From NCBI GenBank assembly GCA_963748815.1, contig CAVVKJ010000019.1, positions 32,001 through 96,000 of the forward strand: 64,000 nucleotides of DNA, given 5' to 3'. The notes beneath the pieces are model-generated. The model saw nothing but the letters and a program-made list of their open reading frames with translations, ran no database searches and was not told where the DNA came from. Both the position numbers and the translations under genes were made by a program. This DNA is from an uncultured Gemmatimonadales bacterium (lineage in GTDB: Bacteria > Gemmatimonadota > Gemmatimonadetes > Gemmatimonadales > GWC2-71-9). The first letter of the stretch is position 1; every line of letters begins with the position of its first letter. Below are positions 26,418 to 57,231 of the stretch, one piece after another.

Positions 26418-26443
26418 AGTATGTCACACCCCTCTGACATCTT
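26418..26443. promoter_or_regulatory. Overlapping divergent PafBC-type promoters
   Basis: + TGTCAC-N10-CATCTT (26422-26443); - TGTCAG-N10-CATACT (26439-26418). Confidence 0.6.
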
Positions 26444-26499
26444 GGCCTTTCACGTTAGTTGGTCTGACCGGAGCATTGACCAGGAGGAGAGGGAACCCG

Positions 26500-26865
26500 A
26501 TGCCTGACTGGAAACCGAGCCCGATTGCCGGGAAGTTCTACACCGTAGAGGACCTCATGAACCTGCCGCCGGCAGGATGCGTCAATCCCGCGAAGTCCCG
26601 GGAGGTGAGCCGGAACCTGCCGGTGCGGTTCTGGATGGAGACGGCCGAGCTGGTGGCCATTCTCGAGGCCAACATCGAGCTGATCAGGCTCAACCAGGAG
26701 CGGGCCAGCGCAGATGACGCCCGCCAGGCCGAGGTGCTGATTGCGCAGCGACGGCTCTGGGTCCGCCACCTGCTGGAGGCAGACGAGGAAGAGACCTTCA
26801 TCGGCATCTTTCCCGCGTCGTTCGCCGGCGACGAATACGATCAGGAGGAGGCCATCACCGGCTAG
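26500..26865 (+). CDS. Hypothetical protein, paralog of the ~33030-33293 ORF
   Basis: AGGAGG RBS; shares G.F.TVE.LMNLP, NIE, NQ and DARQ motifs with the paralog. Confidence 0.7.
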   Translation: MPDWKPSPIAGKFYTVEDLMNLPPAGCVNPAKSREVSRNLPVRFWMETAELVAILEANIELIRLNQERASADDARQAEVLIAQRRLWVRHLLEADEEETFIGIFPASFAGDEYDQEEAITG

Positions 26866-26870
26866 TTCCT

Positions 26871-26968
26871 CTTCGCGACTTCGCGTGAGCCGAATCAGTT
26901 CACACGAAGTCGCGATCTTTCACCTCACCCCCTGTCCCCCTCTCCATGATATGGAGAGGGGGAACGCC
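26871..26968. repeat. Family C right end plus reverse family B hairpin
   Basis: CTTCGCGACTTCGCGTGAGCC; CCTCACCCCCTGTCCCCCTCTCCATGATATGGAGAGGGGG. Confidence 0.75.
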
Positions 26969-26976
26969 GAGCGAAG

Positions 26977-28233
26977 CTACGGCATCCGCATCTTCCTGCC
27001 GAGGAGGTCTTTCGCTTCCCGGATGTTGTAGGACTCGAAACGCTCGCGCTTGAGCGAGTACTGGTCGAACCGCTCCCGGTGCCTGTGGGCCAGCTGTTCC
27101 AACTCGCGCACCAGGCGCCGCATTTCGGGGTCATGTCCGGCGTACTCCTTGATCCGACGGGCGGTGGCCAGCAGTACGCTGCGCGCCTTCTCCAGTTCGC
27201 CGATCCGGTTCAGCTCGGCCGCTTCCTCGCGGGCCTGGGCGGCGTAGCGCTGGGCCACGGCGAGGTCCACCGACTGGTCGCGCACCTGGGCGTCGTTGGC
27301 GGGGTGGTCGGCGTACTCCCACTCGATCCGCTCGGGGCGGACCTGCAGTACACCGTCACGATCGGCCAGGGAGACACTGATACCGGAGCTGGCGCCCATG
27401 GCACCGCGGGGGAACGTCACGCGGAGTACCGCGTCCACCTGCTGGCGGCTGACGAGGTCGTCGAGCGCGACTTCCACGGTGCGGCCGTTTCGGGTGACGC
27501 GGCGACCGTCGAGCGAGTGAATGATCAGGCCGGGGTCGGCTTCGACGACGACGCTGGCGTCCCGTGACACGACCTCGAGCGCCTCGCCCAGTTCGCTCAT
27601 CAGGAAATCGGCAATCTGTTCCGGACGCTCGAGGTAGTAGAAGTTCCCGCCGCCGGCCCGGGCCATGCCCTCCATGAGCCGCTCGTCGAAATCGCGCCCG
27701 ATGCCGAAGGTGCTGGTGGCGACGCCGCGGGCGCGGAGTTCGCCGGCATGCGTTTGGAGCGCACCCACGTCGGTGATGCCGGCGTTCGCCAGGCCGTCAC
27801 TCAGCAGCAGCGTGCGGGCGACGGTGTTCGCGCGCTCGGCGCGAGCCACCTCTTCGCAGCCCGTCAGCCAGCCGCCGGAGAGGTTGGTGGAGCTGCCGGA
27901 ATCGAGATGGTCGATTGCCGAGAGGAGGCGGCGCTTGTGGTCGTGATCGAGGAGCGCGCCGCCGGCCAGGAGCTCCACCTCGGTGTCGTAGGCCACCAGG
28001 GCCACGTGGTCGCGGGGGCCGAGAAGTTCGACCGCGCGGCGGGCAGCCAACTTCGCCAGTTCCAGCTTGTCGCCGTCCATCGAGCCCGACTTGTCGATGA
28101 CGAGTGCGACGTCGAGCGGCAAACGTTCGCGCTGACGCGGGGCCTCGGGGGCGGTGAAGCGGATGCGGACATAGCGGGTGCTGTGGACGCCGGCGCGGAC
28201 CAGCCTCCGGTCGGTATGGATGTGCAGTGTCAT
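26977..28233 (-). CDS. vWA-domain protein (YfbK/Ca-activated chloride channel-like)
   Basis: MIDAS DKSGSM, STNLSGG, LLSDGLAN; start at ATGA overlap with MerR gene. Confidence 0.88.
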   Translation of the reverse strand: MTLHIHTDRRLVRAGVHSTRYVRIRFTAPEAPRQRERLPLDVALVIDKSGSMDGDKLELAKLAARRAVELLGPRDHVALVAYDTEVELLAGGALLDHDHKRRLLSAIDHLDSGSSTNLSGGWLTGCEEVARAERANTVARTLLLSDGLANAGITDVGALQTHAGELRARGVATSTFGIGRDFDERLMEGMARAGGGNFYYLERPEQIADFLMSELGEALEVVSRDASVVVEADPGLIIHSLDGRRVTRNGRTVEVALDDLVSRQQVDAVLRVTFPRGAMGASSGISVSLADRDGVLQVRPERIEWEYADHPANDAQVRDQSVDLAVAQRYAAQAREEAAELNRIGELEKARSVLLATARRIKEYAGHDPEMRRLVRELEQLAHRHRERFDQYSLKRERFESYNIREAKDLLGRKMRMP

Positions 28234-28760
28234 AGACCCTCCCCAGTATTGATGAGCCGATCGGCGAGTTCGACCAGCCGACTCACCAACTTCGTCTCGT
28301 GGTGTGACAACGGGCTTCGAACGTGCATCTCGATGTTGGGGGTGAGGGATATCCGCTCCCAGGAGTCGCGGGAGCGTTGGGAAGGGGTGGCGACCGTCCG
28401 CTGCGGGGTCCGTTCCGCGCGGAAGAAGGGGGTTTCGCGTTCGGCGCCCATCCGGATGGAGCGGGCGTAGTCGGCGGCGGATTTGCGGCGCTGCTGAACC
28501 TCGGCGAGGGTCCTGGCCACCTCGGCGTCGTCCATCGGGGCCAGCCGGTCCTGGATCTCGGCCAAGGTCAGGCGCTCCTTTTGGAGGGCCCGGATGAGCT
28601 CGAGGCGCTGGACATCGGAGTCGCCGTAGAGGACCTTGACCCCGCGGAGGCCGGGGGAGTCCATCAGCCCTTCGTTCTGGTAAAACCTTATGGTACGGAC
28701 ACTTAGACCGGTGGCGGCGGCGAGATCCTGGATGGAGAGGTCGTCGGAGTTGAGGAGCAT
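28230..28760 (-). CDS. MerR-family HTH regulator
   Basis: LSIQDLAAATGLSVRTIRFYQNEGLM..Y...L..I..LQ. Confidence 0.85.
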   Translation of the reverse strand: MLLNSDDLSIQDLAAATGLSVRTIRFYQNEGLMDSPGLRGVKVLYGDSDVQRLELIRALQKERLTLAEIQDRLAPMDDAEVARTLAEVQQRRKSAADYARSIRMGAERETPFFRAERTPQRTVATPSQRSRDSWERISLTPNIEMHVRSPLSHHETKLVSRLVELADRLINTGEGL

Positions 28761-28767
28761 GGCAGTA

Positions 28768-28796
28768 AATGTACAGTTTGACTGTTATACTGTCAA
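28768..28796 (-). promoter_or_regulatory. Near-consensus sigma70 promoter with embedded operator, probably leaderless
   Basis: TTGACA-17 bp-TACATT, 7 nt before ATG; ACAGT-TTG-ACTGT palindrome at 28773-28785. Confidence 0.7.
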
Positions 28797-28915
28797 TACC
28801 CATGGTCCCTGGAGTTGATGTCTCCGGCCGCTCGTCCAAGCCACTTGTGTTCCGTCCTTTCCGTGACAGACTTTGAAACGCTGATCATCCCACCACCAAG
28901 AGCGAGAGGGAAGCG

Positions 28916-29511
28916 ATGGAACAGAACCCAATCCATTTCGAGCCCTGGAAGGCGAGTTGTTCAAGAGTGGCGAAGGCCAGCTCGGCTCCAAACGGCTCCT
29001 AGTCCTCGGCGAGGCGCATTACTCCGACCATCCTGAGGATGAGACCCCGGAGCTCACGTGCAACCTGCTTCAGACCATCACTGATGGGACCAGGTCGATC
29101 GCGTATTTCACAAAGCTCGAGCACCTGCTCGCCGGTTGCCAGAACGGTGACGGAAGACGCCGTGTCGGGCTTCAATGGGGTTCTACACTTTGACAGGGAC
29201 TCGTCGCGAAGGCGCGAAGACGCGAAGACGCGAAGAGGGGGCTCACACGAAGGCGCATTTGCGGTGTGCTGGCAGAATTGAAACCTCAACGAGTCCTCGT
29301 CACCGGCGTCGAACTCTGGAACGCACTGAGCCATGGACTCTTTCCGGGCTGGACGTCCAGATCAATGACGCCGGGATTCGACGGCCCGATTTACGAATGG
29401 AGTTCGGTGGACCACCAGCCACAGGTCTGCGCCACCTGGATCAGCCACCCATCCTCCGGCTCATCCGCCTACGAGAAGTGGACCGAGCGGATTGACACGC
29501 TCATGGAGTAG
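28916..29511 (+). pseudogene. Uracil-DNA-glycosylase-like protein interrupted by a family C repeat
   Basis: FEPW.., LLVLGEAHY, LKPQRVLVTG..LW, SHPS in different frames; repeat at 29204-29256. Confidence 0.55.
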
Positions 29512-29529
29512 GCAATCAGCGAACCCTGC

Positions 29530-29551
29530 TGTCACACCCCCATGCGATTGT
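29530..29551 (+). promoter_or_regulatory. PafBC-type promoter
   Basis: TGTCACACCCC-N5-GATTGT upstream of ATG 29585. Confidence 0.5.
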
Positions 29552-29584
29552 TCGGGTCAACCGTACCACCAACCCGAGCGTGCA

Positions 29585-29995
29585 ATGGACTACCCGTCGA
29601 ACCCACTAACTCTCTTTCCTCCTGCAATCCATGAGCTGCTCGACCGGCAATGCAAGTCCTGGAAGCCACACCACGCCGCACTTGTTGTTGTCTTTCGTGT
29701 ATGGCAACTCGGTGCAGCGCTTCGGTGGAACGTGGCGCCTCCTCCCTGTTCTACGGATTGGTGCGACTCGAATTGGCGTGTGAGCTCCGACCGACTTGGC
29801 TGGCTGGCCGAAGGCAGGGAGTACGTCCGTCGGAGTTCGGGCCTCACTTCATCAGCCTCGTGGCGGGGTGGAGTTGGGCCGGCCGGAACACGTTCCTCAT
29901 CGGGGGTTTCCGCCTGCCGCATCGTACACGCCTCAAGCGGCGGTACCGCGGAGTCTCCGCATGCTGAGCGGGCAATCCAGCGCCGCGCAGCGTGA
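29585..29995 (+). CDS. Hypothetical protein (possibly frameshifted)
   Basis: ATG downstream of promoter motif; no recognisable domain. Confidence 0.3.
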   Translation: MDYPSNPLTLFPPAIHELLDRQCKSWKPHHAALVVVFRVWQLGAALRWNVAPPPCSTDWCDSNWRVSSDRLGWLAEGREYVRRSSGLTSSASWRGGVGPAGTRSSSGVSACRIVHASSGGTAESPHAERAIQRRAA

Positions 29996-29999
29996 ATTT

Positions 30000-30693
30000 C
30001 CGACAGTGTTCGCGGCTTCGCGCGAAGAGGGAACGGTCACCTTCTGGAAGGCGCGCGCGGCCAAGTGCGCGTGCCCCCGGTGTCGGAGCATGAAGTCATC
30101 CTGGAACCGGGTCTCAAGAAGTCGCTGCTCGACTGGCTGGACCATTTCTGGAATCAGCAGTCAGCGGCTCGGAACTGGGCCTGACGCCGAGGGGACCCCG
30201 CTCGGCCACACCCATCATCTCCGTGTAGCCAGCCGGAATAGGTCCAGTCCCGGCCTTCCCGGACGGGATGGCCATCTGTATGTCGCCACCACCTCAGGGC
30301 GGCAAGCCGATTGCTTCAGCCGATGCTCGGCCTCTCGCGCCAGCTCGGCGAACCGCTGCACGAGGACTTGTCGGCGAGCACCCGGGCGGTGTGTGGCGCG
30401 CATCCGTCCAATGTGAAGTAATTGTTCTCGGCGTCCCCCGTTGTGTATCGGGCGGCTCGCGCCAAGGGATCGTGATCCAGTCGCACCGTTGTCGTGGAGG
30501 ATGTACAGGGCAAGCCAGCGGGTAGGACGCCGCGTCTGTTCGCCGGAAGAACAGGCCGCTCGGTGCGTTCGCGGAGACGATCCGAAGGCCGCTGGTAGCC
30601 GCGCTTGTGCAGTTCGTGCACCATCTGGAGGACGCGCACTGCCCGGCGGACAATGGGCTCAGGCGAGCGGACGCTCGGCTTGGGAGTAGCCAT
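30000..30693 (-). CDS. Hypothetical protein (VHELHKRGYQR motif), frameshifted, 3' end uncertain
   Basis: Coupled to DUF429 gene; coding-like fragments in successive frames. Confidence 0.4.
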
Positions 30694-31470
30694 CTAGAAT
30701 GCCCTTTCTGCGGCTTGGAGGCAGCAGGAGATGGAGCACGCGCATTGAATGGCCAAGGCGAGCATCCTACGCCAGGCCACCATCTCCATGCGAAGTCGGT
30801 ACTCGTCGCGAGGAGGATTCTCGGGGAAGCAGACCGCGTCGCCTCGGCGGATTCGCCTGGCAGTCCAGAGGCCAGCGAACGCATTGAGGATGTCATCCGC
30901 CTCACAGCCGAGGTCTTGGCGTGCGGTGAGGGCGGCATCGATAGCTCCCCCAAACTCCGTCCGAAGGAGTCCCGCCCGTCTTGCCTGACCTTCTGGTGAA
31001 CGCTTCTTCGCGACAATCGGCTCGCCCCCCGCCAGGTGAAAGAAGCAGAGCTCGGGATGGACTTCGCGCACATGACCCCGGAGGGAGGGGTCACCCCGCA
31101 TCAGATCGTCGACCTCACGAATCTTCGGGAGGATTGCCCAGGCCTGTTTCGACAGGGCCCGACCCTCGATGCGGCGCCCGATGGCACAGGCGTCCGAATA
31201 GGTGGATGCCGTGAGCATCGGCCGGATCGGGGCCGTGAACACTGAACGACCTCTCGGCTGTCCGAGCAGTTGGCGCGCCGCGATGTCGCACTCGCGGCTG
31301 CCAGACGACATCAGCCCTATCGGGATATCAAGCGCCAGAAGTTCCGGCGGGTTCGGTGAATCAAGAAGAGCCCGGACCGACGGCACGACCTCCCAGGAGA
31401 TTCGCCCGTCCGCACTCTCGCGGATCACGGCCCAGCCGCCCTTGCACCCGTCCGCTCCGGCAATGATCAC
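30694..31470 (-). CDS. DUF429 family predicted RNase H-fold nuclease
   Basis: IAGADGCKGGW, LDIPIGL, R.CD..AR, EVHPELCF, DDIL.A. Confidence 0.85.
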   Translation of the reverse strand: MIIAGADGCKGGWAVIRESADGRISWEVVPSVRALLDSPNPPELLALDIPIGLMSSGSRECDIAARQLLGQPRGRSVFTAPIRPMLTASTYSDACAIGRRIEGRALSKQAWAILPKIREVDDLMRGDPSLRGHVREVHPELCFFHLAGGEPIVAKKRSPEGQARRAGLLRTEFGGAIDAALTARQDLGCEADDILNAFAGLWTARRIRRGDAVCFPENPPRDEYRLRMEMVAWRRMLALAIQCACSISCCLQAAERAF

Positions 31471-31498
31471 GAGGCGGCACCACCTTCTCAACGGAGAA

Positions 31499-32660
31499 TC
31501 AGCCACGCTTCACCTGACACTTCGCCAACTCTACCAGCACCCCGTGACACCCGATCCCCACAATCTGCACACGCCAACGCTGGGCCACCGTCCGCGGGAC
31601 CCGGGCGGCGTGCGAGCCGGGGTTCCGGTCCTTCGCCAAGGCGTCGAGAATGGGGGGCAGCTGCGTCGCGTACCACCCGCCGTTCTCCAGCCGCTTCCCC
31701 AGGAATTGCGCCCGCTCACGGTCCCCGCCGATCACGCGCGCAAGCTGCCCAAGCGACAGCGAGCCGCTCCGGGCCAAGTCCTCCGTCGAGCCATCGATGT
31801 TCGCCAGCCGGATCGCCTCCGGCGCGTCTTGCAACGCACAGAGAAGGATCCGGTTCACCTGTACTTCGACGGCCTTGGCCAACGGCCCCATCGACGCCTG
31901 AAAGTCGAAGGCGTCATCCTCCCGATGATCGCGGAACACCTTCTCCCCGGTCGCGACAAACGTCCGGGCAACCGGATTCGAGGGCCTGCCACGCGGCGTC
32001 CCCGAGGAGATTCTCGCGAAGCTCCCGCTGCATCAGGCCCGTCCCCCCCGATTCCGCGTCAAATTCCGCCCAATACCGCCCCTCCGCGAGGGGCGCGTAG
32101 GCCGCCTCGTCGAAGTACCGATGGCCATCGGGCCGGATCACCACCAGCGGCAAGTCGACCATTCCTCCGTAGAGGGAAACGGGACGGTCGTGGTAGTGGA
32201 CATTCCGGAGATGACGAACCTCCTCGACGACGGAAAGGGTGTCGTCGAGCACGAGTCGTCGGATGTCACGAAGCCTGAACCAGCAGTCGCACCGGAGATC
32301 ATCCTCGCGGTAGTACACGGGCAGGTGGTCCGGATCGACGCTGGCAACGTCCTCGAAGGTGATCTCGTCCACGTCCGCCACATAGAGCGAACGGTAGTCG
32401 GTCAGGTACAGCTGCAATTCGCGGGTCTGGTCCTGGCGCAACTCCTCCGCCATCCGCTTCAGGTCGTCGCCGTGCGCCATTCCCTGCTGCCGGTTTTCGG
32501 ACCGAATCTTTCCCCACCAGACGTACACGTCGTCGTCGTCGGACTTGCGCTCTCTCCAGGCCTGGATCCGTGACAACAGGATGCCCAGGTGCGCCTCCAT
32601 CGCATTCGACGCATAGGCCGGATTCCAGACACCGAGGAGATGCTGAACGGGAGGGTTCAC
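31499..32660 (-). CDS. HP0729-like protein with C-terminal HEPN-like motif (frameshift near 31970)
   Basis: HLLGVWNPAY, WWGKIRS, LQLYLTDYRSLYV, SLYG; C-terminal KAVE.. and RNPGSH. Confidence 0.6.
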
Positions 32661-32938
32661 GGGGCCGCCGTTGGGGTGGGTGGGAGGTGCCGGGCTCAAG
32701 ATGTGGGTACCTCCGGGAGGGCACAACCGGCCGTGGGCTCAGCCGGGGGGAAGCACAAGATGAATGCGAGAGAATTGCCGGTATTCCTCAACATTGCACG
32801 AATAGTTGGCAAAAACGCCAAAAAGCAGCGGTTTCCACGGCTTTTTGCTCATTTCTTGCTCGACATTCCCACAATTGCCTACTGCCGGGACGCACCGGCT
32901 CGCACCCAGACACACCCGGACGAGAGTACTGACGCCCC

Positions 32939-32972
32939 TGTCACGCCCCCACCCTACCTTGGGACTCTGACA
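32939..32972. promoter_or_regulatory. Overlapping divergent PafBC-type promoters
   Basis: + TGTCAC-N10-TACCTT (32939-32960); - TGTCAG-N10-TAGGGT (32972-32951). Confidence 0.65.
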
Positions 32973-33029
32973 ATTGTACCTCAAGCAGGATAGCTCCGGG
33001 GAACCTCAACGCCACAGCACCCCCGCCGT

Positions 33030-33293
33030 GAGCAGATCATCGGCAGGTTCCACACGGTCGAGGAGCTGATGAATCTCCCCCAGGCCGCCCCGGTCAAGCT
33101 CTCGATGGGCAGGGAGGAATTGTTCGAACTGCAGGCCATGAACATCGAGATCCACCAGGCCAACCAGATGGAGTGTGCTCCGGAGGATGCCCGTCAGAAC
33201 GCGATCCTCACGGAGCGGCGGCAGCTGGGGATCGACTGGCTGAGCCAGCGGGTGGAGGATAGCTTGAGGAGAAGTCGGCGCAGGCGACCCTGA
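33030..33293 (+). CDS. Hypothetical protein, paralog of 26500..26865 (start uncertain)
   Basis: IIGRFHTVEELMNLP..NIEIHQANQ..DARQ; homology extends upstream of ATG 33069. Confidence 0.6.
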   Translation, partial: EQIIGRFHTVEELMNLPQAAPVKLSMGREELFELQAMNIEIHQANQMECAPEDARQNAILTERRQLGIDWLSQRVEDSLRRSRRRRP

Positions 33294-33310
33294 TGCATTT
33301 CCGGAGCCCC

Positions 33311-33367
33311 ATGGAACAGCCACAACTCGCCTGGATTGCCAACTTCATCTGGGGCATCGCGGACGAT
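33311..33367 (+). pseudogene. N-terminal remnant of type I R-M HsdM
   Basis: GGAG RBS then MEQPQLAWIANFIWGIADD, after which similarity stops. Confidence 0.55.
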
Positions 33368-33405
33368 AGTCGAGCGGTGGGGGGATTGTCGGCGGAGAGT
33401 ATCGA

Positions 33406-36400
33406 TTGAGTCACATTTCTCTCAACGCAGTCGTCAAGAGCGACCTGCAAGAGATTGTGCTGAGGATCGTTAGGCTCCGGGATGAGCCGAGTGACCTTCA
33501 GGCGCGCCTCCTCGGGCTTCGTCAGCAGTTTGAGCGGGCCATTCGACTTCTCGTTCTTGATCCAACGAGGGCATTCCCCGATCACTTCGAGCGCCTCTGC
33601 TACGTTTCGCAAAAGCACTCGCTCTCGACAGATCTCGTTACCCAGCTGCAGCGGACTCGAATCAGGCTCAACAAGATCGTCCATGAGGTTAGTGCGAATC
33701 CGAGTGAACAAGACGTTTCCGAAACCGCGGCCGTGTTGCTCGCCCTGCTCCACGTGTTCGGACTCGCCCCAACGCCAGCACGAACAGCTCCACCACCACC
33801 TCCCACCACGCAACTCGCTCCGCCGGCTCTTCCTCGCACAAGGATCCGGCCGGCCGAGGGAACTACCCCATCGCCGCCGTCGATCGGCGTCACTGGACGA
33901 GAAAGCGTCCCTGTCTCAACCACGCCTCCAACTGTTGGCGGACGGACAGCTGTCGCATTCGCGCGAGTCTTCGTCCTGGAGGTGGGTACTGCAGGCAAAG
34001 AGGGCCACAAGAGCCTCCGCTGCAGACACGAAGACTTTGACGACCTTCTCACGGTCGAGCTACACATCCCGTGGGCCGATACTGATGTGGTGTCCTTCTC
34101 AACGCTTGCGTTGCACACAGTAGAGCAGGTGTCGCCATTGCTCTGGCGCACCACCGCCGAGAGTTTCGTTGTTCTGGAACCGGACGTACTTGTGCAGGCT
34201 ACCGACATCGCGACCTGTTTCCAATCGAGCCCTCCCAGCCACCTCCTCTATGTCTCCTCGCTGCTGAACTCGGTGCAACAAACCCGCCCGATGGCACAGG
34301 GCATCGTCGCCAATACCACCTTCAACATGCTCCTTGCTGAGAACGATGGTACGCCTCCGGAGTCTCTTCTCGCTCGGGCATGTGATGCTCACGCTGAGGC
34401 ACTTGGCAGCTTACCGGGCGAGGTGGATGCCGATGTCCGACGCGCCATCCGCACGGACCACCTCGAGGCCCTGACTGAGATCGCGGCACGGCTTCGCAAG
34501 CATCACATTACGGTCGAGCCGGCTCTATTCACATCTCAGTTTGGTTTGCAGGGCCGCCCCGACGTCCTTGTTGAGCGCGATCAGTCATCCAGCTACGTGG
34601 TGGACTTGAAGACCGGGAAGCCCCCGAGAGAAGATGCGGACCCGGAATGGCCGGCGATGGAAGGCGTGAGAGGCTCCTACGCCAAGGAGGCTGCCCAGTT
34701 GGTGTGTTACGACCTTCTGCTGGCCGGTCGAGGTCCCACTGGGCCAACGCATTATCTCTTCTACTCGGCAGCTGGCGCCAAAGCCGGGGTGCGGGCTATT
34801 CACGTCACGTACGAAGCGCGGCGTGATGTCATCCGAGCACGTAATCGCATCATCGCGGCTGAGCGGACAGTGCTGCTGCCCCCATCTGCCGAGACCGCCT
34901 CGCTGACTATGGCGGGACTGCCGCCGAGACTCCCGCCCTACGCCCGGGAGTCTCTCTGTTGGCTGTGGCTCGTTACCGAGCCATCTGTAGTCCCGACGCT
35001 CCACGTACGGACACCTTTGTCGGCGACCAGGTGCGTTCGGTCATGCAGCAGACGTGGCGCGCACGACTGGGAGGGGGCACGCAGTATGAAGGATCTGGTT
35101 TTGCCTCCCTCTGGCGTGAGCGTGACCTGATCCTCAAAGCGGCAAGTTTGGGCGTGCTGGCGTTTCTTCGCTACGCAAGAATGGAAACGGTGGACAGAAG
35201 ACAGCTCTATCATTTCACGCTCGACGCATCGAAAAGCCAACCCTTTATCACTGCTGAACTTCGCAAAGACGAGCCGATCGTCCTGTACCCTCACCTGGAT
35301 CGCTACGTCGACCATTGAACGGCCCGATCATTAAGGGTCGACTGAAGCTCGTCGAGCTTGGTGCCGCCGAGCCGCGGGTTGTAGTGGAGTGTTACAGCGC
35401 CACCGCCGAGGCGCTACTTCCGCGGCACGCACATTGGGCTATTGAGCGCGACTATCTCGAGTCGAGCGGCCGCGCCGCATTTCCGGGGCTCGCCCGGCTG
35501 CTGTCCATCGATCCCAATCGGTTGTCCCTCCTTCTCGGTGACCGAGCTCCCCTAGGCCCAGCGCCGACACTCGCCTCGACAACCACCGGTGCAGGGACCA
35601 CGCTTCAACAGATCGCCGTCGCTGCCGCCGAGTCCCAAGAGTATTTCCTGAATTCAAGGCCCACCCGGAACGGGAAAGACGAGCACGTTACTCCCAGCCA
35701 TCGTCAAGCTTGTGCTTGATGAGCGACGCACACCGGTGCTACTCCTCGCCGATGAGTAATCGAGCTGTGGACGAGATGCGGGCGGCAATGAGCAGGCATC
35801 ATTTCGTGCTTGATCCTTTCCGTGAGGATCGGCTGAGCGCGCCGGAATCGCCAAGCGCACCCGGTGGGGCCAGTATTGTCTTTCGAGAACGATTGGCAAA
35901 GACCGAGGTGTACGCCATGACGGTTGCCCAGGCGCAGAAGCGCCATGCTTGGCTGGAGGCGATGGCGTTTGACACCGTAGTCGTGGACGAGGCCTCGCAG
36001 TTGCTCGACAGCCAGTTACGGGGGATCCTCAGCACCGCAACACGATTTGTGCTGATTGGCGATCAGCGACAGTTGCCACCTATCCAGCCCGCTGTGGCGG
36101 ATGCTGATGGTGAGTCCGAGGGTGGCGAGGTCAAGCCTTCGACATTTGAGCGCTTGCTGGACAAGATGCACTAGCGAGCGGGTGGGACTACGCGTATGGC
36201 ATGCTCGAAGAGCAGTGGCGCATGCACGAAGAGATCCAGGCGTTTCCAAGCGCAGCCTGCTATGGGGGGCGGCTCCGCATCGGTCAGCCAGTGAGGCAGC
36301 GTGCCAGAGAGTGGGTGCGGTTGAGGCCATGGGCAGACAGCACCCGTAGGGACCCTATTCGCCCACCGCGTGGCGTTCGTGTCGGTCCCGGATGATCATG

Positions 36401-38088: not shown

Positions 38089-38132
38089 ATCTGCCCCTGG
38101 TGAAAGTCACATGCGACGACCCGATCGACTAC

Positions 38133-47169: not shown

Positions 47170-47174
47170 GGATG

Positions 47175-48489: not shown

Positions 48490-48529
48490 CCATGCCTCCA
48501 AGTCGTTTGACCTCCCTCAGGTGGCCCTG

Positions 48530-48551
48530 ACGATACGGTGGGGGTGTGACA
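48530..48551 (-). promoter_or_regulatory. PafBC-type promoter
   Basis: TGTCACACCCC-CACCG-TATCGT. Confidence 0.65.
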
Positions 48552-48559
48552 TTCCCTGA

Positions 48560-48646
48560 CGTCCCCCCTCTCCAGGAGGGAGAGGGGTTGGGGGTGAGGG
48601 GGTACCCCCCCTCTCCGCTAGCCGGAGAGGGGGCCGGGGGGTGAGG
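48560..48646. repeat. Two tandem family B hairpins downstream of pafC
   Basis: CCCCCCTCTCC..GGAGAGGGG..GGGGTGAGG twice. Confidence 0.75.
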
Positions 48647-48650
48647 ACGA

Positions 48651-49595: not shown

Positions 49596-50659
49596 CGGGC
49601 GTAGATCTCCGCCGTGGCGCCGGCCATCGCGCGGTACTCGGCAATCAATTCCTTCGGCGCCACCGGCGTCGCGTCACCCGCCAACGACAAGAGCCACCGC
49701 GCGAAAGCATCCACCCGCCGCACCTGGAACTTCCGCCGGTCGGGATGATTATTGACCGGTGCGCCGAGGCGGGCGGCGGCACGCGCCGGGCCGGAGCGGC
49801 GGTCGAACTCCACCTCCGCCGTCATCGCGTGGCCGTCGCCCAGTTCCCACGCCTGCCGGGACTGTGCGTGCTTCTTCAGCGAGAACTTCTCCGGTACGGC
49901 GTAGTCCGGCGTCCCCGGTGCCTGCCCATTTGCTGCCGCTCCCGTCATCCGGCTCAACCGGAAGTTCTTGACGATCTCTTCCTCCGGCGCGCGCGCCGCC
50001 AGGTACCAGTGCCGCCCCAGGAAGAAGAGCCCCATCGGCTCGACGGTGCGCTCCGCCTCCTCGTTGCGACCCATCGATCGATACGTGAAGGTGACGCGCT
50101 TCCGCCGCTCCAGCGCCCCGGCCAGCACGTCGAAAATCTCGTCGTGATTCTCGACCGGACCCGCCACCTGCACTTCAGGCGCGCGGGACGCATCCACCGG
50201 CAGGTCGAACGCCAGCTTGCGGCACGCCGAATCGGCCAGCGCCGCCAGCTCCGGCACGCCCAGCGCCCGCACCCGCGCCGCTGCCTCGGCCACCGCCGCG
50301 AGCTCGTCCGGCTCGAACGCCAGCCCGGCCAGCGCCTTGTAGCCGTAGCGGTCCACCCGCTTCGGCGCCGTCTTTCGTCCCTCCACCACCATCGACAGAT
50401 ACGGCAGATAGAATTCCTTCGCCGCCAGCCGGTATCCCTCGGCCTCTCCCTCGGGCGACAGCACCGTCTCGATCGGCACGCCGAAGGCGCGGAGCTCGTC
50501 CTTGTCCCGCTCGAACATCCGCCGGAGCGCCGCCTTGCTCTGCTTCCCTGGCTGATACCCCGGCACCTCCTGCGCCAGCTCGTCAAATGAGACGGCGTAC
50601 CGCCGCCTGAGGAGTGCGGCGAGCAGATCAATCCAGCGCTGGAGCTTCGGTGCAGCCAT
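49592..50659 (-). CDS. pafB: PafB-like HTH-WYL-WCX regulator
   Basis: RRMFERDKDELRAFGVPIET (PafB hallmark), WYL..NFRLSRM. Confidence 0.82.
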   Translation of the reverse strand: MAAPKLQRWIDLLAALLRRRYAVSFDELAQEVPGYQPGKQSKAALRRMFERDKDELRAFGVPIETVLSPEGEAEGYRLAAKEFYLPYLSMVVEGRKTAPKRVDRYGYKALAGLAFEPDELAAVAEAAARVRALGVPELAALADSACRKLAFDLPVDASRAPEVQVAGPVENHDEIFDVLAGALERRKRVTFTYRSMGRNEEAERTVEPMGLFFLGRHWYLAARAPEEEIVKNFRLSRMTGAAANGQAPGTPDYAVPEKFSLKKHAQSRQAWELGDGHAMTAEVEFDRRSGPARAAARLGAPVNNHPDRRKFQVRRVDAFARWLLSLAGDATPVAPKELIAEYRAMAGATAEIYAR

Positions 50660-53600
50660 CAGTCCGCCTTGTCGTTGACACCGGGACACCACCCGACCCG
50701 CTTGTACCCGCAGAACCCGCATTCCTTCGGATGGGCGGTCAGCTCCGCGCCGCCCGCGTCGATGGCGGCCAGCGCGTCCTGCACGCGGCGCCGCGCCCCG
50801 GCCCGCTCTTCATCATCGATCGGCGTGCTGACCTGCGTCTCGGCGCGCGAGTACTGGAACGCGAACCGCGCCACTGGCATTCCGCCGATCGCCTCGGCGG
50901 CGGTCACGTACACGTCCCGCTGCAGCGCGTACCGGGCCGCGTTCGCGGCCGCCGCCGCGGCGTCACCCTGCGTGGTCTTCACGTCGAGCAGCACCAGGCC
51001 ATCCGCCTCGCGGGCAGCCAAGTCGATCATCCCCTCGATCTGCCGGTCCGCTCCCACCAGGTGCACGAACGGCAACTCGTGGCGGCTGGTCGGGTTCTCG
51101 GCCACCGCCCGATATTCCGCTTGCTCGGCCACCAACCGGATCTCCTCGCGCAGCATCTCGCGCAGGTCGCGCTCCTCCGCCGAGTCGGGCGGCATCGCCG
51201 AATCATCCCACCGACCGATCGCGGCATCGAGCAGCGCGTCGGTGTCGGCCTCCTCCTGCATCTGCTCCAGCACGTCGTGCACGATCTGCCCGCGCGCGAT
51301 GGCGCCGAGGTATCCCTGTCCCGTCCGCTCGACCGGCGGCTCCTTCAGCCCCGCCACGTATCGCAGCCAGTGCCGCCGAGCGCAGCGCCCGTGACTCATC
51401 AGCGAGGTGGCCGAATGGCGCGCCGGACCCACGGCCACCGGGAGCGGGCCAACCTGCGCCGGCAACTCCGCCGGGAGCGGCTCGACCCACGGATCTGGCG
51501 CCTCGACGGACGGTACCGGGGGACGAGGTGGTGCGAGGTGCACCGTCGCCACGAACTTTCGTCCTCCCTGGCCGGCATACTCAACCTCCCCCCCGTCGAC
51601 CACCGGCACGGCGAGTCGTCCCAGCAAGGCTCTGGCTGGGGCAGCTCCACTGCTGGTCGCGCCGCAGACTCCCGCCAGGGTCGATCGCTGCTTGGCCCGC
51701 GTGGCCGCCACATACCAGAGGCGCTTGTGCTCCGCGGCCGACTCCGCATCCTGCTCCGCCTTCAGCGCCGTCCACTCGGCGGGCTGCGGGTCATCCTTGC
51801 CGGCATCGGGATCCTTGAGCGCCAGCGTATCCCGGCCGATGAGGCAGGCGTCGGCGCCCCAGCCCCCGCCGGTCACCGGTTTCCGTTCGAGGTCGCACCA
51901 GAAGACGGTGTGCCACTCGAGCCCTTTGGCGCTGTGGATCGTGGTGAGCGTCATGACATCGTCGGTCGGGCCGTACAGCCGTTCATCTCCTTCTCGATCC
52001 TCGCGATCGCGGATGTCCCTGATGATCTGCAGGAAGTCGCCCACGCTCGAACCCGACTGCTGTCGGGCGATGCGCAGGAACTTTCGCACGTTGGCGATCG
52101 CCTGATTCCCCTGCGCGCCCTGCAGCACCAGGTGGCCCAGGTAACCGCTCCGGTCGAGAAGCCCTTCGAGCAGTTCGTGGATCGGCACGCGATCCCGAAG
52201 CACCATCCGTTCCCGCAGCAGCTCGATTCCCTCGGCAAGCCGTCCGGTTTCGGCCGTGACCGCCTGCGCCAGCGCATCCCACTGCGGCGAGTCCCCCTGC
52301 CAGGCGATCTGTAGCAGCGTTTCGTCCCTGAGCCCGACGAAGGGACTCCGCAGGAATCCCAGGAGCGCCCGGTCGTCCCGCGGATCCCGGATCGTCTCCA
52401 GCGCGAGGATGAGATCCAGCACCTCGCGCCGCTGGTAGAGTCCCTCGCCCCGCAGGGTGTAGGTCGGGACACCCGCCCGTTCCAGCGCCCGCTGGTAGAT
52501 CTCCACGTCTCCCATCCCGGCAAAGAGCGCCGCCATCTCACGGTATGGGACACCCTCCGCCTTCAGCTGCACCGCACGGCGAGCCACCGCCTCCGCCTCC
52601 GCCATCCGGCGCGGTTCCGCGGTGAGCGGCTCGCCGTCGGCGTCGCCCGGCACCACCAGGATTTCCACGGCCCGGTCCGCTGGTCCCTCGGTGGTGTCCA
52701 CCGCCGTGACCGAGCGGTAGTTCACCTCGAAGTCCCGGATCGTCGTCCCGTCGATCGGCGTGTCGAGCACCGGCCCGACGGTGGCATCCACGAACCCGAG
52801 AATCGGCGCGACGCTGCGGAAGTTGTCCTCCAGCGCCACGACCGTGCCCAGCCCGCCCTCCTCGAACGCCCGCTCGACCCCACGCCAAACCGTCACGTCG
52901 GCGCCGCGGAAGCGGTAGATGCTCTGCTTCGGGTCGCCGACCAGCATCAGGCGTGTGGTATCCGCTCGACCTGACTCAGGGTCGGCCAGCAGCCAGGCGA
53001 TGTCCCGCTGCACCGGGTCCACGTCCTGGAACTCGTCCAAGATCAGTGTCCGCAACCGGCGCTGCAGCAGCCGTCGAACCGATCCGTCGTTCCGCAGCAG
53101 GTCCCGCGTCCACACGATCATCCGATCGAAATCGATCGCGCCCTCGTCTTCCAGTCGACGCTCCAGCAGCAGCCGCGCCCGCTCCGCCAGCTCGGCCACT
53201 GCCCGCTCGCCCTCTCCGAGGCGCGTCGACTGCCGAATCCTCCTCAGCCGGTCGCCATCGCCGAGGAGGCGACGCACCCACCCTTCCACCTCGTCCTGGC
53301 GGCGCTGGGCCAGCAGGGCCTCCAGCCCCGGCACCGCATCCGCATCCAGCGCCTCGATCAGTGCGTCGCGCACCGCCTCAGCGGCCCGTGACCCGCTCTC
53401 CCCCTCCTCGAGCACGTTCATTCCGGGGTTCTGACCCGACCGCAGCGCCGACTCGCGGAGGATGTCACCACAAAATCCGTGGATCGTCCCGATCCGCGAG
53501 TTGTCGACCTGGTAGGCGACGTCGCCCAGTCCCGCCTCCCGGAGTGCCGCGCGGAGCTTGCGTTTCAGGTCGGCGGCAGCGGCGTTGGTGAAGGTGATCG

Positions 53601-53784
53601 CCCCGATCTCCTGCAGGTCGATGGGCGACTCGATCCGTTCTCCCCCCACCTCCGCGCCGAGGAGGTAAAGGATGCGCGCCACGACGGTGGAGGTCTTGCC
53701 GGTGCCGGCTCCGGCCGCCACCAGCACGTGGCGGTCGACGGCGCGGATCGCCTGCCATTGCGACGGCGTGGGTTGCCGCCTCAC
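50659..53784 (-). CDS. addA: AddA/AdnB-like UvrD helicase-nuclease
   Basis: AGAGTGKT, ITFTNAAA, LDEFQD, VGDPKQSIYRFRGAD, TIHSAKGLE, YVAATRA; nuclease GMID..DVKT. Confidence 0.88.
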   Translation of the reverse strand: MRRQPTPSQWQAIRAVDRHVLVAAGAGTGKTSTVVARILYLLGAEVGGERIESPIDLQEIGAITFTNAAAADLKRKLRAALREAGLGDVAYQVDNSRIGTIHGFCGDILRESALRSGQNPGMNVLEEGESGSRAAEAVRDALIEALDADAVPGLEALLAQRRQDEVEGWVRRLLGDGDRLRRIRQSTRLGEGERAVAELAERARLLLERRLEDEGAIDFDRMIVWTRDLLRNDGSVRRLLQRRLRTLILDEFQDVDPVQRDIAWLLADPESGRADTTRLMLVGDPKQSIYRFRGADVTVWRGVERAFEEGGLGTVVALEDNFRSVAPILGFVDATVGPVLDTPIDGTTIRDFEVNYRSVTAVDTTEGPADRAVEILVVPGDADGEPLTAEPRRMAEAEAVARRAVQLKAEGVPYREMAALFAGMGDVEIYQRALERAGVPTYTLRGEGLYQRREVLDLILALETIRDPRDDRALLGFLRSPFVGLRDETLLQIAWQGDSPQWDALAQAVTAETGRLAEGIELLRERMVLRDRVPIHELLEGLLDRSGYLGHLVLQGAQGNQAIANVRKFLRIARQQSGSSVGDFLQIIRDIRDREDREGDERLYGPTDDVMTLTTIHSAKGLEWHTVFWCDLERKPVTGGGWGADACLIGRDTLALKDPDAGKDDPQPAEWTALKAEQDAESAAEHKRLWYVAATRAKQRSTLAGVCGATSSGAAPARALLGRLAVPVVDGGEVEYAGQGGRKFVATVHLAPPRPPVPSVEAPDPWVEPLPAELPAQVGPLPVAVGPARHSATSLMSHGRCARRHWLRYVAGLKEPPVERTGQGYLGAIARGQIVHDVLEQMQEEADTDALLDAAIGRWDDSAMPPDSAEERDLREMLREEIRLVAEQAEYRAVAENPTSRHELPFVHLVGADRQIEGMIDLAAREADGLVLLDVKTTQGDAAAAAANAARYALQRDVYVTAAEAIGGMPVARFAFQYSRAETQVSTPIDDEERAGARRRVQDALAAIDAGGAELTAHPKECGFCGYKRVGWCPGVNDKAD

Positions 53785-56700
53785 ACCGCCTCCCGCGGCC
53801 CGCCGGCCACTCGGCAGATGTCGCGCGCATGGCAGAACGAGGGACAGCCGCAGGAGGGCGGCGGGTTGGCGGGGAATGCGCCGCCGCGCACACTCAGGAC
53901 GTGGCGCACTACGGCGTCGAGCGCGGCGTCCATCCGGGTCGCGTCCTCACCGCCGGTGAGCAGCGTCTTCGCCTTGCGATCCACGCTGACCAGCTGGAGA
54001 CTGTGCACCGCCTCCCGCTGCTTCAGCGCGCGATACTCCACTCGCGATACCACCGTGCCCGGCCGCAGCGCCGAAAGGGCGTGGGCGTAGAGCGGCACCT
54101 GGAGCACCACCCCCTCGTCCCACGCCTTCTTCTTGCCCCCGCCCGGCGCGGCGTACTTGCTCGACTTGTAGTCCACCGCCGCGACGTAGTGGCTCGACTC
54201 GACCCGCTCGTCGATGCCGACTTCCACCCGGTCGATGGTGCCCCGGAACCGGAACCGGACGCCTCCCCGTTCGAGGACCGCGTCCGTGAAGCTCAGCTCG
54301 TGGCGCTCCACGCCGGTCCGGAGCACGAACGCGTTGTTGGTGCGATTGTTGAACAGCTTCTCGTTGTAGGCGATCTCGAACTCGAGGTAGCGCGTCAGCA
54401 TCCGCGCCATGTTGGCCCGCTTCGCGGGGGCGAGGGAGGGATGGCCGAGCCAGTCCGTCTCCCCCGAGGCGTCGAGGGCCGCGTCGAGCGCGGCGCGGAG
54501 CCGCGGGATCGCCTCCGCGTGGTCGCCCTTGAGGAGCAGGACCGGCTCGCCGCGCCGCGCAAACTCCCCGTCGAAGAACCGGGCGAGCGCGTCGTGGAGG
54601 ACGGTACCGAAGGTCCTCGGGTCCATCTCGTCTTCCGGATCCTTCCGTTCCGAAATGCCGAGCAGCCTCGACGAGAAGTACGCCCAGGGACACTTGGCGT
54701 ACGCCTCGAGCTGGGTCGGGCTCCAGAGGTACTCGTCCCCGAACTGCCGGCCCAGTCGCGCGACGAGGTCCCGATCGGTGATCTGGCCGTTCCAGGGACC
54801 GGGCAGACCCCTGGCTCGGTCCAGCTCGACGCGCGCCGCATACTCCGCCTGTCGCGCTGCGCCAGGAGTCGCGGCGATCCGCACGCCGGGCGTGAGCACG
54901 CGCGACGGCGTCAGGGTGTCCTCCGCGAGCGTCGCCACTTCGCCGAGCGCCTCGATGAACGCGCTCCGCACCACTTCCCGGCTGGCCGGATCGATGCTCG
55001 CGTACGATACCGTGAGCGACTCCTGGGCTCCCGCAACAAGGACCCGGAAGAGTTCGCGTTCGCGGCGCTCCCACTCGGCGCGGAGCTCCAGCGAAACGCC
55101 CCCTGCCACGAGCGACGCCCGCTCCGATTCGTCGAGCAGTGGAGAGCCGGGCGCGCGCACCGGGAAGCGGCCCGACTCCATCCCCACCACGAACAGGTGG
55201 CGGACATGCCGGTACATCCCGGCAAGACCCTCAACCACCGGCACGCCCCGCCGGTTCGGCGACCAGAGCGCGATCTCGTGATCCAGCAGGTCGGTGAGTT
55301 GTGCGTGGAGATCCACGGCGCCGAGCGCGGTCGGGCTGGAGCCCCACTCCTCGACCGCCGTTTGCCACTCCTCCACCAGCGTCGTCAGTCCCTTCCATCC
55401 CTGGAGGTCGAGCCGCACCACGTCGAACCGGTCGCCCGGGACGCGCTCGATGCGCGCCTTCATCTGCCACGGATCGTCGGTGAGGAACCGGTGCAGCCAG
55501 GCGAGCCACTCCCTGAGCGGCTGGCGGACGTCGAGTTCGCGGGCCTGCGCAGCGAATCGGTCGAAGGTGGCTGATTTGCCGTCGGGCGCTGCATCTCGAA
55601 TGGCCGCCGCCCACTGCTCCAGGCCGCTCACGCGGCGCGCGAACCCGATCGCGTTGATCTGCGCGGCGTCCACGTCGTTCTCGAAGTACGGCTGGTCGGC
55701 CAGCTCCGCGAGCCCGTGCCGGGACCATCCGTCGGCGGCGGCGCCGAAGAGCGCGGCCAGGGCGCGGACCACGGGGATATCGCGCAGTGCGTGCCGGCGG
55801 CGCAGGGTGGCGGGCACCCCGAACCGTTCCAGCGCGGCGGCGGCCATCTCGGTATAGGGACGGGCCTGGCGGGCCACCACCGCCATCCGGTGCAGCGGGA
55901 CCCCGTTGTCCGCCAGTTCCCGGATGCGGCGCGCCACTTCCTCCATTTCGCGCTCCACGTCCGGCGCGGCGATGACCGCGACCGTTCCGGTGCGTGCCGT
56001 CGGGGATGAACTGAATAGCCGGGTGGCGATTGCCTCCGGCTCCTCGAGGCGCTTCACGGTCGGCGCGAGATCGTCACGGAGGTCGAGGAGTTCCGACGAG
56101 TAGATGGTGATGCGATCGAGGGCGGGGTGAGCGCGAAGCGCGCGGAGGAGTGGGCGCCACCCGTTCCGGAGATCCTGCAAACCGAAGAGCCGGAGCTCAC
56201 GGCGGCCGCCGAGCTGCTCGGTCGTCCGGTCAGGATCGGCCAGAATGGCCTGGGCGCAGTCCGCCCAGCCATCGCGTCCGTCCCGGCGCCCCGCGGCATT
56301 GAGTGCCTCGAGGTACCCGGCGTAAATGGCCGCGAGCTCGGCATCGCGCACCTGCTCGAAGTCGTCCCTTCCGTCCCGCCCCGCCAGCGCATTTGCGAAG
56401 TGCGCCGGTTCGACTCCCTCACTGACCAACTCACCGATGAGCCGATCCACCGCCGAGAGGAATCGTTCGAGGTGCCTGAGCCGGCCGAGGAGGCCGGTGG
56501 CGCGCTCGCGGATCAGGCGGGCGAGAAGGGTGCGGCGGTCGAGCTCGGTCAGCGGCCGCCGATCGGTCCGGCCCAGCCACGTCGGGAGTTCCTGGAAGGT
56601 GAAGAGCGGCGGATCATACCAGCCACCCACCCCCCGTTCGAAGGCGAGGGCGTAGAGGTCATCCCGGATGCCCCCCTGCCGGAGCGCCAGGACGACCGAT

Positions 56701-56825
56701 GGTGACGGGAATGGATTCTCTGGGGTGGCACGTTGTGGGACCAGGAACTCCGCCGCCGCCTGCTCGAGCAGCAGTCGGGGATCGGTGCCGAGGATCAGGT
56801 GCAGCTCGGCCTGGGCAGTGGCCAC
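53781..56825 (-). CDS. addB: AddB-like inactive helicase plus PD-(D/E)XK nuclease
   Basis: SPTQLEAYAKCP..YF, GTIDRV..VDYK, LQ.PLY, C-terminal Cys cluster. Confidence 0.82.
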   Translation of the reverse strand: MATAQAELHLILGTDPRLLLEQAAAEFLVPQRATPENPFPSPSVVLALRQGGIRDDLYALAFERGVGGWYDPPLFTFQELPTWLGRTDRRPLTELDRRTLLARLIRERATGLLGRLRHLERFLSAVDRLIGELVSEGVEPAHFANALAGRDGRDDFEQVRDAELAAIYAGYLEALNAAGRRDGRDGWADCAQAILADPDRTTEQLGGRRELRLFGLQDLRNGWRPLLRALRAHPALDRITIYSSELLDLRDDLAPTVKRLEEPEAIATRLFSSSPTARTGTVAVIAAPDVEREMEEVARRIRELADNGVPLHRMAVVARQARPYTEMAAAALERFGVPATLRRRHALRDIPVVRALAALFGAAADGWSRHGLAELADQPYFENDVDAAQINAIGFARRVSGLEQWAAAIRDAAPDGKSATFDRFAAQARELDVRQPLREWLAWLHRFLTDDPWQMKARIERVPGDRFDVVRLDLQGWKGLTTLVEEWQTAVEEWGSSPTALGAVDLHAQLTDLLDHEIALWSPNRRGVPVVEGLAGMYRHVRHLFVVGMESGRFPVRAPGSPLLDESERASLVAGGVSLELRAEWERRERELFRVLVAGAQESLTVSYASIDPASREVVRSAFIEALGEVATLAEDTLTPSRVLTPGVRIAATPGAARQAEYAARVELDRARGLPGPWNGQITDRDLVARLGRQFGDEYLWSPTQLEAYAKCPWAYFSSRLLGISERKDPEDEMDPRTFGTVLHDALARFFDGEFARRGEPVLLLKGDHAEAIPRLRAALDAALDASGETDWLGHPSLAPAKRANMARMLTRYLEFEIAYNEKLFNNRTNNAFVLRTGVERHELSFTDAVLERGGVRFRFRGTIDRVEVGIDERVESSHYVAAVDYKSSKYAAPGGGKKKAWDEGVVLQVPLYAHALSALRPGTVVSRVEYRALKQREAVHSLQLVSVDRKAKTLLTGGEDATRMDAALDAVVRHVLSVRGGAFPANPPPSCGCPSFCHARDICRVAGGPREAV

Positions 56826-56860
56826 GCTCGGCTCCGGACGTCGAAGAGGATGGAGGGGTC

Positions 56861-56924
56861 AATCTCACCCCGGCGTGTGACAGACCTTCATGCTCCAGGG
56901 ATTGTCACACCCCCATCTCAAGGT
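56861..56924. promoter_or_regulatory. Back-to-back PafBC-type promoters (toward addB and toward the acidic ORF)
   Basis: - TGTCAC-N10-GAGATT (56882-56861); + TGTCAC-N10-CAAGGT (56903-56924). Confidence 0.65.
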
Positions 56925-57213: not shown

Positions 57214-57231
57214 GGCCTGCGGGGACGGCAC

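Follow-up and report, generated by a model that had tools for sequence, protein, structure and literature searches.

The 64,000-nucleotide (nt) stretch analyzed here as a whole (hereafter the window; contig CAVVKJ010000019.1, positions 32,001 to 96,000) comes from an uncultured Gemmatimonadales bacterium, and its positions 26418..56924 hold repeated promoter-like sites of the form TGTCA[C/G]-N10-NANNNT around a tandem pair of WYL-domain genes that resemble pafB and pafC, the genes of the mycobacterial regulator PafBC. These sites are probably hybrid promoters activated by the local PafB/PafC pair, and would make up an accessory, self-activating regulon apart from core DNA repair. The reading draws on the motif itself with its constant spacer, on where it lies with respect to leaderless starts, on its co-occurrence with pafB, on the conserved residues of the regulator and on the location of the sites in an island. 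Statements attributed below to papers with PMC numbers are taken from excerpts of those papers.

All eight sites listed in an earlier sequence-only reading of this DNA are present, each 22-mer lying at its reported place and on its strand with the reported hexamer, and the eight copies of the promoter-like word are real. The pattern matches 11 times in 26400-56930 (30,531 nt), where the rate in the rest of the genome (33 matches in the remaining 3,126,138 nt) predicts 0.32; in 200 approximate dinucleotide shuffles the mean was 0.99 and the maximum 5. The three matches beyond its list are 28309-, which probably counts as a ninth site, 31549- (8.2 bits, weak) and 41875+ (below 12.5 bits). Scores were taken from a matrix trained solely on the loci of relatives, one of which (L003, from genome G068) belongs to a congener with homologous sites. 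With this matrix the eight sites reach 14.1-26.2 bits, and a scan of the whole genome gives seven matches above 17 bits, six of which are noted sites in 26418..56924, while the seventh falls within a coding region named FabH-like from its translation. A matrix trained on the window's own sites was discarded as circular; its sole strong outside match lay inside a coding region. The two weakest of the listed sites, 26439- and 32972-, overlap their divergent partners. Each site had been said to point into a gene, which fails for 29530+: the open reading frame (ORF) downstream of it (29585-29995) has no Pfam match and no homologue, and was judged by homologue search because the hexamer gene caller, which scored it negatively, misses low-GC genes. 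A general scan for sigma-70 promoters and terminators found 2 promoters versus 1.3 in shuffles, and 8 terminators versus 7.6.

The geometry of the motif is best seen in relatives. The host groups with Gemmatimonadota: by title, 72 of the 80 nearest pafB loci from named genomes belong to this phylum or one of its subgroups and 5 to Actinomycetota, while 2 are labelled "uncultured bacterium" and 1 Kuenenia. In the intergenic DNA of these loci, TGTCN-Nn-YANNNT occurs 116 times at n=11 versus 24-34 times at n=8-10 and 12-14. A matrix iterated from the 80 loci alone collects 114 sites in 65 of them, with an asymmetric consensus, TGTCAcACCC-N6-(T/C)ANNNT. A hold-out of 80 metagenome loci outside the training set was divided by similarity to the window PafB: the 40 loci of Gemmatimonadota type contain 26 sites in 19 loci versus 1 for a reversed control, and the other 40 contain none. 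In 33 of these other loci the neighbors resemble those of named actinobacterial loci, with a putative pafA among them.

Of the 114 sites, 5, 15 and 5 have the start codon of an ORF of at least 80 codons 5, 6 and 7 nt past the hexamer, respectively, and at most 5 share any other offset from 0 to 30 nt; 16 of the close starts, in 15 loci, are those of pafB genes with a conserved N-terminus. In the genome of the window itself, TANNNT is most frequent at 6 nt upstream of start codons, where 36 of 1019 regions have it; the counts are 18 at offset 5, 10 at offset 7 and 0-12 at the others. By this peak, leaderless genes are apparently common genome-wide. Ordinary TANNNT promoters have a weak TTG near -35, and in 0 of 63 does GTC stand at the PafBC position. 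Judged from these patterns, the 3' half of the motif is a predicted -10 box, and the sites are very likely promoters. When the leaderless starts are taken as +1, TGTC covers positions -28 to -25, which is where the PafBC element lies; with this putative +1, the GTC triplet at -27 to -25 keeps a fixed spacing to a TANNNT -10 box, as in RecA-NDp promoters. The mycobacterial PafBC motif is tGTCgg(N10)tA(N3)T, read by R46 and R50 (PMC8635444), and the identity of spacing that had been claimed for the two is borne out by both the n=11 peak and the position of TGTC.

The motif also follows the regulator. Across 150 genomes of the phylum, the strict pattern was found in 29 of 41 pafB-positive genomes (52 sites) versus 19 of 109 pafB-negative ones (21 sites), and a reversed-pattern control gave 13 matches over all 150. 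These genomes include kin and are not independent. Eight genera have both states, and in six of them the pafB-positive members have more sites. The proposed tie between the motif and the local pair is thus upheld across genomes as well as in the hold-out loci.

By sequence and key residues the pair are true PafB and PafC, as had been supposed. Two adjacent genes encode winged helix-turn-helix (wHTH)-WYL-WCX proteins, PafB-type then PafC-type; Pfam places WYL and WCX on both and HTH_PafC on the second, and the best PDB matches are M. smegmatis PafB and Arthrobacter PafBC for the first gene and PafBC for the second. pafC follows pafB in 51 of 60 loci, and no WYL gene other than these two was found in this genome (86% complete). 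No NCBIfam model matched either protein, ESM Atlas returned only Gemmatimonadota WYL clusters for PafB, and public data auto-annotate such proteins as proteasome accessory factor B. The window PafB has all nine residues named as DNA contacts (K5, R8, S40, A43, R46, R50, K52, R56 and Y76; PMC8635444). Among 75 aligned PafB-type proteins, which include a few actinobacterial rows, R46 is kept in 71, R50 in 74, K52 in 74, R56 in 71 and Y76 in 74. The residues that bind single-stranded DNA (ssDNA), namely R181, Y196, R211 and R214 of PafB and R201 and R204 of PafC (PMC11804915), are all retained in the window pair, where PafB has Glu for R204 and Lys for R208; the four PafB residues occur in 75, 74, 70 and 75 of the 75 proteins, and PafC R201/R204 in 58 of 58. 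It is highly probable that PafBC reads the sites. In an unrooted PafB tree without an outgroup (62 rows of 152 extracted proteins), the Gemmatimonadota proteins form a single branch (100/100), which splits deeply into two and is separate from the actinobacterial rows. One contig (L029), titled Candidatus Kuenenia, carries a motif-bearing pafB nested among Gemmatimonadaceae, by misbinning or transfer.

Three congeners (G061, G062 and G066) align to the window until about 25250 and resume at 57324-61242, with 1.4-1.8 kb between. Because these genomes lack the stretch, it is an accessory island of 32 kb, and all sites as well as the regulator fall within it. A fourth congener, G068, carries the island with its content rearranged, and keeps the divergent pair of sites before addB and the site after pafC while the flanks differ. 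pafB, addB and the strict motif are missing from six of seven congeners. A Pfam scan showed no integrase in the island, no PafB relatives were found in viral contigs, and plasmid records gave one weak Nonomuraea match to PafB.

The addB-like, addA-like, pafB-like and pafC-like genes form one minus-strand operon with overlaps of 1-4 nt, which site 56882- precedes, in agreement with the claim that the regulon covers addBA and the pair itself. When the 114 sites are sorted by target, 34 precede WYL genes, 8 addB, 8 VWA genes, 5 PUA-like genes, 3 PEGA, 3 ARPP-1, and 2 each RmuC, an RNase-H-fold helicase-nuclease and DUF2779. Some sites are distant from the regulator: in a one-contig genome, a recC-recB-recD operon that is 0.7 Mb away from pafB has one 82 nt upstream, and others precede cas4-cas1, Cas_GSU0053, TY-Chap3, AAA ATPases and Ig-like proteins. 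The sequence-only reading had placed the defence-like genes of the island in the regulon as well, a claim that is not supported: the restriction, GmrSD and sacsin-like genes have no site of their own, and the defence genes at 37.4-47.9 kb could be reached solely via read-through from 48551-.

By analogy with mycobacterial PafBC, the two proteins would form a heterodimer, activate rather than repress, contact sigma and be triggered by ssDNA. PafB would read TGTC at -28 to -25 and PafC would hold sigma domain 4, substituting for the -35 contact; ssDNA in the WYL domains or tunnel would switch the pair on and so let the housekeeping polymerase start transcription from the neighboring TANNNT -10 box. 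AddAB- or RecBCD-type enzymes that chew double-stranded ends would supply ssDNA fragments and render PafBC active, and active PafBC would raise its own operon together with nucleases, helicases, proteins of unassigned role and, in some cases, CRISPR genes, with core repair remaining under LexA. Such a circuit would self-amplify, because the pair's own operon bears the promoter. From the mycobacterial precedent, it is likely that PafBC acts here as an activator through sigma adaptation, and ssDNA is an equally likely trigger. As a physiological role, the handling of DNA ends or of foreign DNA is suggested by gene content and is the somewhat favored possibility.

Several observations weigh against activation by a PafBC of the mycobacterial kind. 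The 21 sites in pafB-negative genomes exceed the roughly 9 that the control rate predicts, a strict site is lacking in 12 of the 41 pafB-positive genomes, and of the eight genera with both states one runs the opposite way and one ties. Several sites in pafB-negative genomes precede familiar target families (VWA, PEGA, DUF2779, ARPP-1 and addB), and such sites fit missed or lost regulators. No gene was called within 400 nt of 26 of the 114 sites, and many targets encode something other than DNA enzymes (VWA at 8 sites, PEGA at 3, Ig-like, RCC1 and outer-membrane proteins). Among 40 relatives, addB was found in just 4 of 12 pafB-positive genomes; therefore, a feedback loop via AddAB cannot be general. 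In the proteins, E42 of the thymine pocket of PafB is Ala in the window and Glu in 17 of 75, and the PafB wing lacks Trp (W70, the sigma 3/beta-flap contact) in 57 of 57, 28 of which have another aromatic residue; W70 may not be defining, because the Arthrobacter wing too aligns without Trp. The PafC position aligned to an Arthrobacter Asp, which may be the D62 sigma contact, is Gln in the window, and Gln in 28 and Glu in 10 of 58 PafC relatives. The best RpoD-like sigma is a 289-amino-acid (aa) protein that does not reach the RpoD cut-off in any of the 13 genomes searched, and therefore the sigma partner differs from SigA; this protein resembles the primary sigma of Bacteroidota. In the genome of the window it is encoded at L194:1495-2364 (contig C10), and there are 2-4 such paralogues per genome.

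These differences (W70 absent, E42 changed and D62 probably changed), the unusual short sigma and the non-DNA targets would also suit the same regulator and sites working in another mode or on another signal, as a repressor or ordinary activator with RNA or another ligand, in an island for defence or envelope stress instead of DNA-end processing; other WYL proteins, CapW and BrxR, are island repressors (PMC12392091). However, repressors of the CapW/BrxR type are homodimers (PMC11804915), whereas here a B and C pair faces an asymmetric site, the site keeps a phase to the -10 box that is exact to the nucleotide and equal to that of PafBC, and the ssDNA-binding residues are retained. We consider this alternative unlikely, although it survives best.

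It is improbable that the sites belong instead to an alternative sigma or to another island regulator, such as the MerR-type protein, with pafBC as bystanders. The genome has three sigma-70-type genes, and 19 genomes have sites and no detected pafB, as this explanation would allow; but sigma paralogues are present in 13 of 13 genomes searched, while the motif and pafB are jointly absent from six of seven congeners, and the conserved PafB helix agrees with the GTC triplet. Moreover, no gene is more constant in the 80 loci than the WYL pair, and no target is more frequent than the pair's own start; the constancy is inflated because the loci were chosen by pafB.

The wider claim of the sequence-only reading, a genome-wide, LexA-independent DNA-damage regulon in the mycobacterial style, is largely refuted and very improbable. 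The distant sites in relatives, one of them before recCBD, are in its favor, but only 41 of the 150 genomes yielded pafB, and the enrichment by which that claim was to be judged, upstream of recA, ssb, uvr, ruv or dnaE2, did not appear. Core repair genes were located by short motifs. None of 29 recA promoters (located loci of 30) exceeds 8.3 bits; in the genome of the window, recA, lexA, uvrA/B/C, ruvA/B/C, ssb, radA, recN, recR, recJ, mfd and mutS stay at or below 10.5 bits, and the dnaE2 operon has no PafBC-type site above 12 bits. Because core repair genes lack the motif, this is not a global damage regulon of the mycobacterial style. A direct repeat, TTCG-N7-TTCG, stands instead before 29 of 29 recA genes (L084-L113) and twice each before lexA and the radical-SAM-imuB-dnaE2 operon, and probably serves as the LexA box of the phylum; the island, including the DNA before the pafBC operon, has no box of this type that scores above 12 bits. 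Finally, that the repeats are scars of recombination or cassette insertion, or chance, is hardly credible: clustering in a variable island, two pairs that look duplicated and one orphan site would fit, but not the constant distance to a -10 box, the placing of start codons at +1 and the divergent pairs kept while flanks differ, in an island where no integrase was seen.

We therefore retain hybrid promoters activated by PafB/PafC as the preferred explanation, and Table 1 collects the features of the island.

Table 1. Sites, genes and related elements of the island, with putative LexA boxes elsewhere in the same genome (positions in the window unless a contig is given).
Feature	Position	Strand	Remarks
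Accessory island with all sites and pafBC	25252..57323		Replaced by 1.4-1.8 kb in G061, G062, G066
GDSL/SGNH hydrolase-like gene	25771..26364	-	75 nt behind site 26439-
Site TGTCAG-N10-CATACT	26418..26439	-	14.5 bits, weak; overlaps 26422+
Site TGTCAC-N10-CATCTT	26422..26443	+	24.3 bits
121-aa protein, no assigned function	26500..26865	+	Small conserved family (21 database matches); paralogue of 33030-33293
VWA-domain gene	26977..28233	-	Pfam; recurrent target family in relatives (8 sites)
MerR-type HTH gene	28230..28760	-	
Probable ninth site	28288..28309	-	15.1 bits; 76 nt before VWA gene, in 3' end of MerR-type gene
Site TGTCAC-N10-GATTGT	29530..29551	+	20.3 bits; orphan
PUA-like-domain gene	31499..32660	-	Two ORFs (31914-32660, 31499-31939); Pfam; recurrent target (5 sites)
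Site TGTCAC-N10-TACCTT	32939..32960	+	21.7 bits
Site TGTCAG-N10-TAGGGT	32951..32972	-	14.1 bits, weak; about 310 nt before PUA-like gene
Small ORF	33030..33293	+	Paralogue of 26500-26865
PD-(D/E)XK nuclease and SF1 helicase (AAA_11/AAA_12) gene	33406..37228	+	Several ORFs
Low-GC defence-like cluster	37408..47942	-	No motif of its own; GC 55-58%; DUF6946, Res-like helicase, split N6/N4 methyltransferase, GmrSD (HEC-05-like), sacsin-like/NOV_C (TmtA-like)
87-aa ORF	48226..48489	-	62 nt behind site 48551-; arrangement matched in G068 (L003)
Site TGTCAC-N10-TATCGT	48530..48551	-	26.2 bits; immediately past pafC
pafC-like gene	48651..49595	-	HTH_PafC, WYL, WCX
pafB-like gene	49592..50659	-	wHTH with RMFERDK helix, WYL, WCX
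addA-like helicase-nuclease gene	50659..53784	-	UvrD and PD-(D/E)XK; below NCBIfam AddA cut-offs
addB-like nuclease subunit gene	53781..56825	-	Below NCBIfam AddB cut-off
Site TGTCAC-N10-GAGATT	56861..56882	-	17.3 bits; predicted addB-addA-pafB-pafC operon promoter; also in G068
Site TGTCAC-N10-CAAGGT	56903..56924	+	21.4 bits; divergent from 56882-; also in G068
67-aa very acidic ORF, no family	57010..57213	+	Behind site 56903+
TTCG-N7-TTCG, genome of the window (G000)	C14:123041		Before recA
TTCG-N7-TTCG, genome of the window (G000)	C10:85465, 85490		Before lexA
TTCG-N7-TTCG, genome of the window (G000)	C13:11830, 11874		Before radical SAM-imuB-dnaE2

The two paralogous small proteins (36% over 80 aa) each lie behind a strong site; the site pairs at 26422+ and 32939+ may share one ancestor, because the genes behind them are paralogues. 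ESM Atlas gave weak, nameless look-alikes, mostly viral, for the 87-aa ORF. The PUA-like protein is unbroken in relatives, at about 390 aa. In the island, its gene, that of the nuclease-helicase (33406-37228) and that of the methyltransferase (40757-43210) are each split into several ORFs, by decay or assembly indels, and pafB and addB of G068 likewise have frame breaks. Short intergenic repeats resembling repetitive extragenic palindromic (REP) elements (CTTCGCG runs and CCCTCTCC/GGAGAGGG hairpins), with many copies in congeners, lie at about 26375-26405, 26870-26970, 29205-29240, 48560-48650, 56935-56960 and 57235-57360. The left edge of the island (23884-25774) encodes a ribbon-helix-helix (RHH) protein and a nucleotidyltransferase, a possible toxin-antitoxin pair, and a PD-(D/E)XK protein. 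A tRNA-Phe(GAA) gene at 5347-5419 does not border the island but lies 20 kb away. In G061, the short "empty" site (L290, C4:371900-373900) holds a gene of DUF2779, a motif target family elsewhere, and has no site above 12 bits.

If PafBC activates these promoters, sigma adaptation would be older or more mobile than assumed, and the system would show which contacts are essential, given another primary sigma and no Trp wing contact. The logic of the regulon would differ from what is known, being self-activating, accessory and separate from LexA, and the motif would flag VWA, ARPP-1, DUF2779, PUA-like, PEGA and small proteins as candidates for a response to DNA ends or foreign DNA. A broader and more tentative idea, which we regard as possible but doubtful, is that of a portable, phylum-crossing sigma adaptation, in which PafBC would reprogram a short non-RpoD-type sigma and a self-amplifying circuit of DNA ends, AddAB/RecBCD and ssDNA would capture nuclease, CRISPR and defence genes, as an alarm for infection or breaks parallel to LexA.

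PafBC-like proteins beyond Actinobacteria, and WYL control of repair and defence as by DdaA, are already known. By domain content, PafBC-like proteins have been noted in Bacteroidetes, Firmicutes and some Proteobacteria. A literature search at the level of titles and the beginnings of abstracts found no publication on PafBC promoters in Gemmatimonadota, and the excerpts of a paper on Gemmatimonas regulation (PMC11406998) held no passages matching promoter terms. In Myxococcus xanthus, MXAN_1359/MXAN_1360 are a tandem wHTH-WYL pair outside Actinobacteria named PafB/PafC homologues (PMC12288472); in the excerpts of that paper they are described as LexA-regulated, with no motif or regulon reported, whereas no LexA-type box was found before the operon described here.

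DriD of Caulobacter and SiwR of M. smegmatis are likewise ssDNA-sensing WYL activators with small regulons; however, they are homodimers (PMC11804915) and match more weakly, over WYL-WCX only. With two different genes and an asymmetric consensus, the present system stands outside the homodimeric WYL class (DriD, DdaA, SiwR, CapW and BrxR). DdaA of Moraxellaceae shares with it a WYL activator and a motif before DNA-repair, CRISPR and restriction genes, and in basal lineages has a small regulon beside LexA, as here; DdaA differs in being a single protein whose site lies some 50 bp ahead of the start, and according to its authors may not use sigma adaptation of the PafBC type (PMC12392091).

The closest system is PafBC of M. 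smegmatis, M. tuberculosis and Arthrobacter aurescens with its RecA-NDp (-26 element) promoters (PDB 7P5X, 9FND and 6SJ9; PMC8635444; PMC11804915; PMC6789036); sigma adaptation by PafBC is presented in PMC8635444 as a principle of mycobacteria and other actinobacteria. Common to both are the wHTH-WYL-WCX pair in B-then-C order, the RMFERDK recognition helix, the ssDNA-binding arginines, a 22-nt TGTC-N12-TANNNT site at equal phase, and an AddAB/AdnAB-type operon among the targets, adnA being PafBC-dependent in mycobacteria (PMC8682763). Unlike actinobacterial PafBC, the present system belongs to a Gram-negative phylum, is patchy (41 of 150 genomes) and is island-borne, and no Pup ligase was found in the 86%-complete genome, whereas actinobacterial pafBC is conserved and sits with pafA in the Pup-proteasome locus. 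Mycobacterial pafBC is described as not damage-induced in excerpts of PMC7617703, whereas here the promoter of pafBC itself bears the motif, which none of the 40 other PafB loci had. In further contrast to the actinobacterial response, recA and core repair are excluded, W70 and E42 are not kept, the primary sigma is short, and the element is extended to TGTCAcACCC, compared with tGTCgg in mycobacteria.

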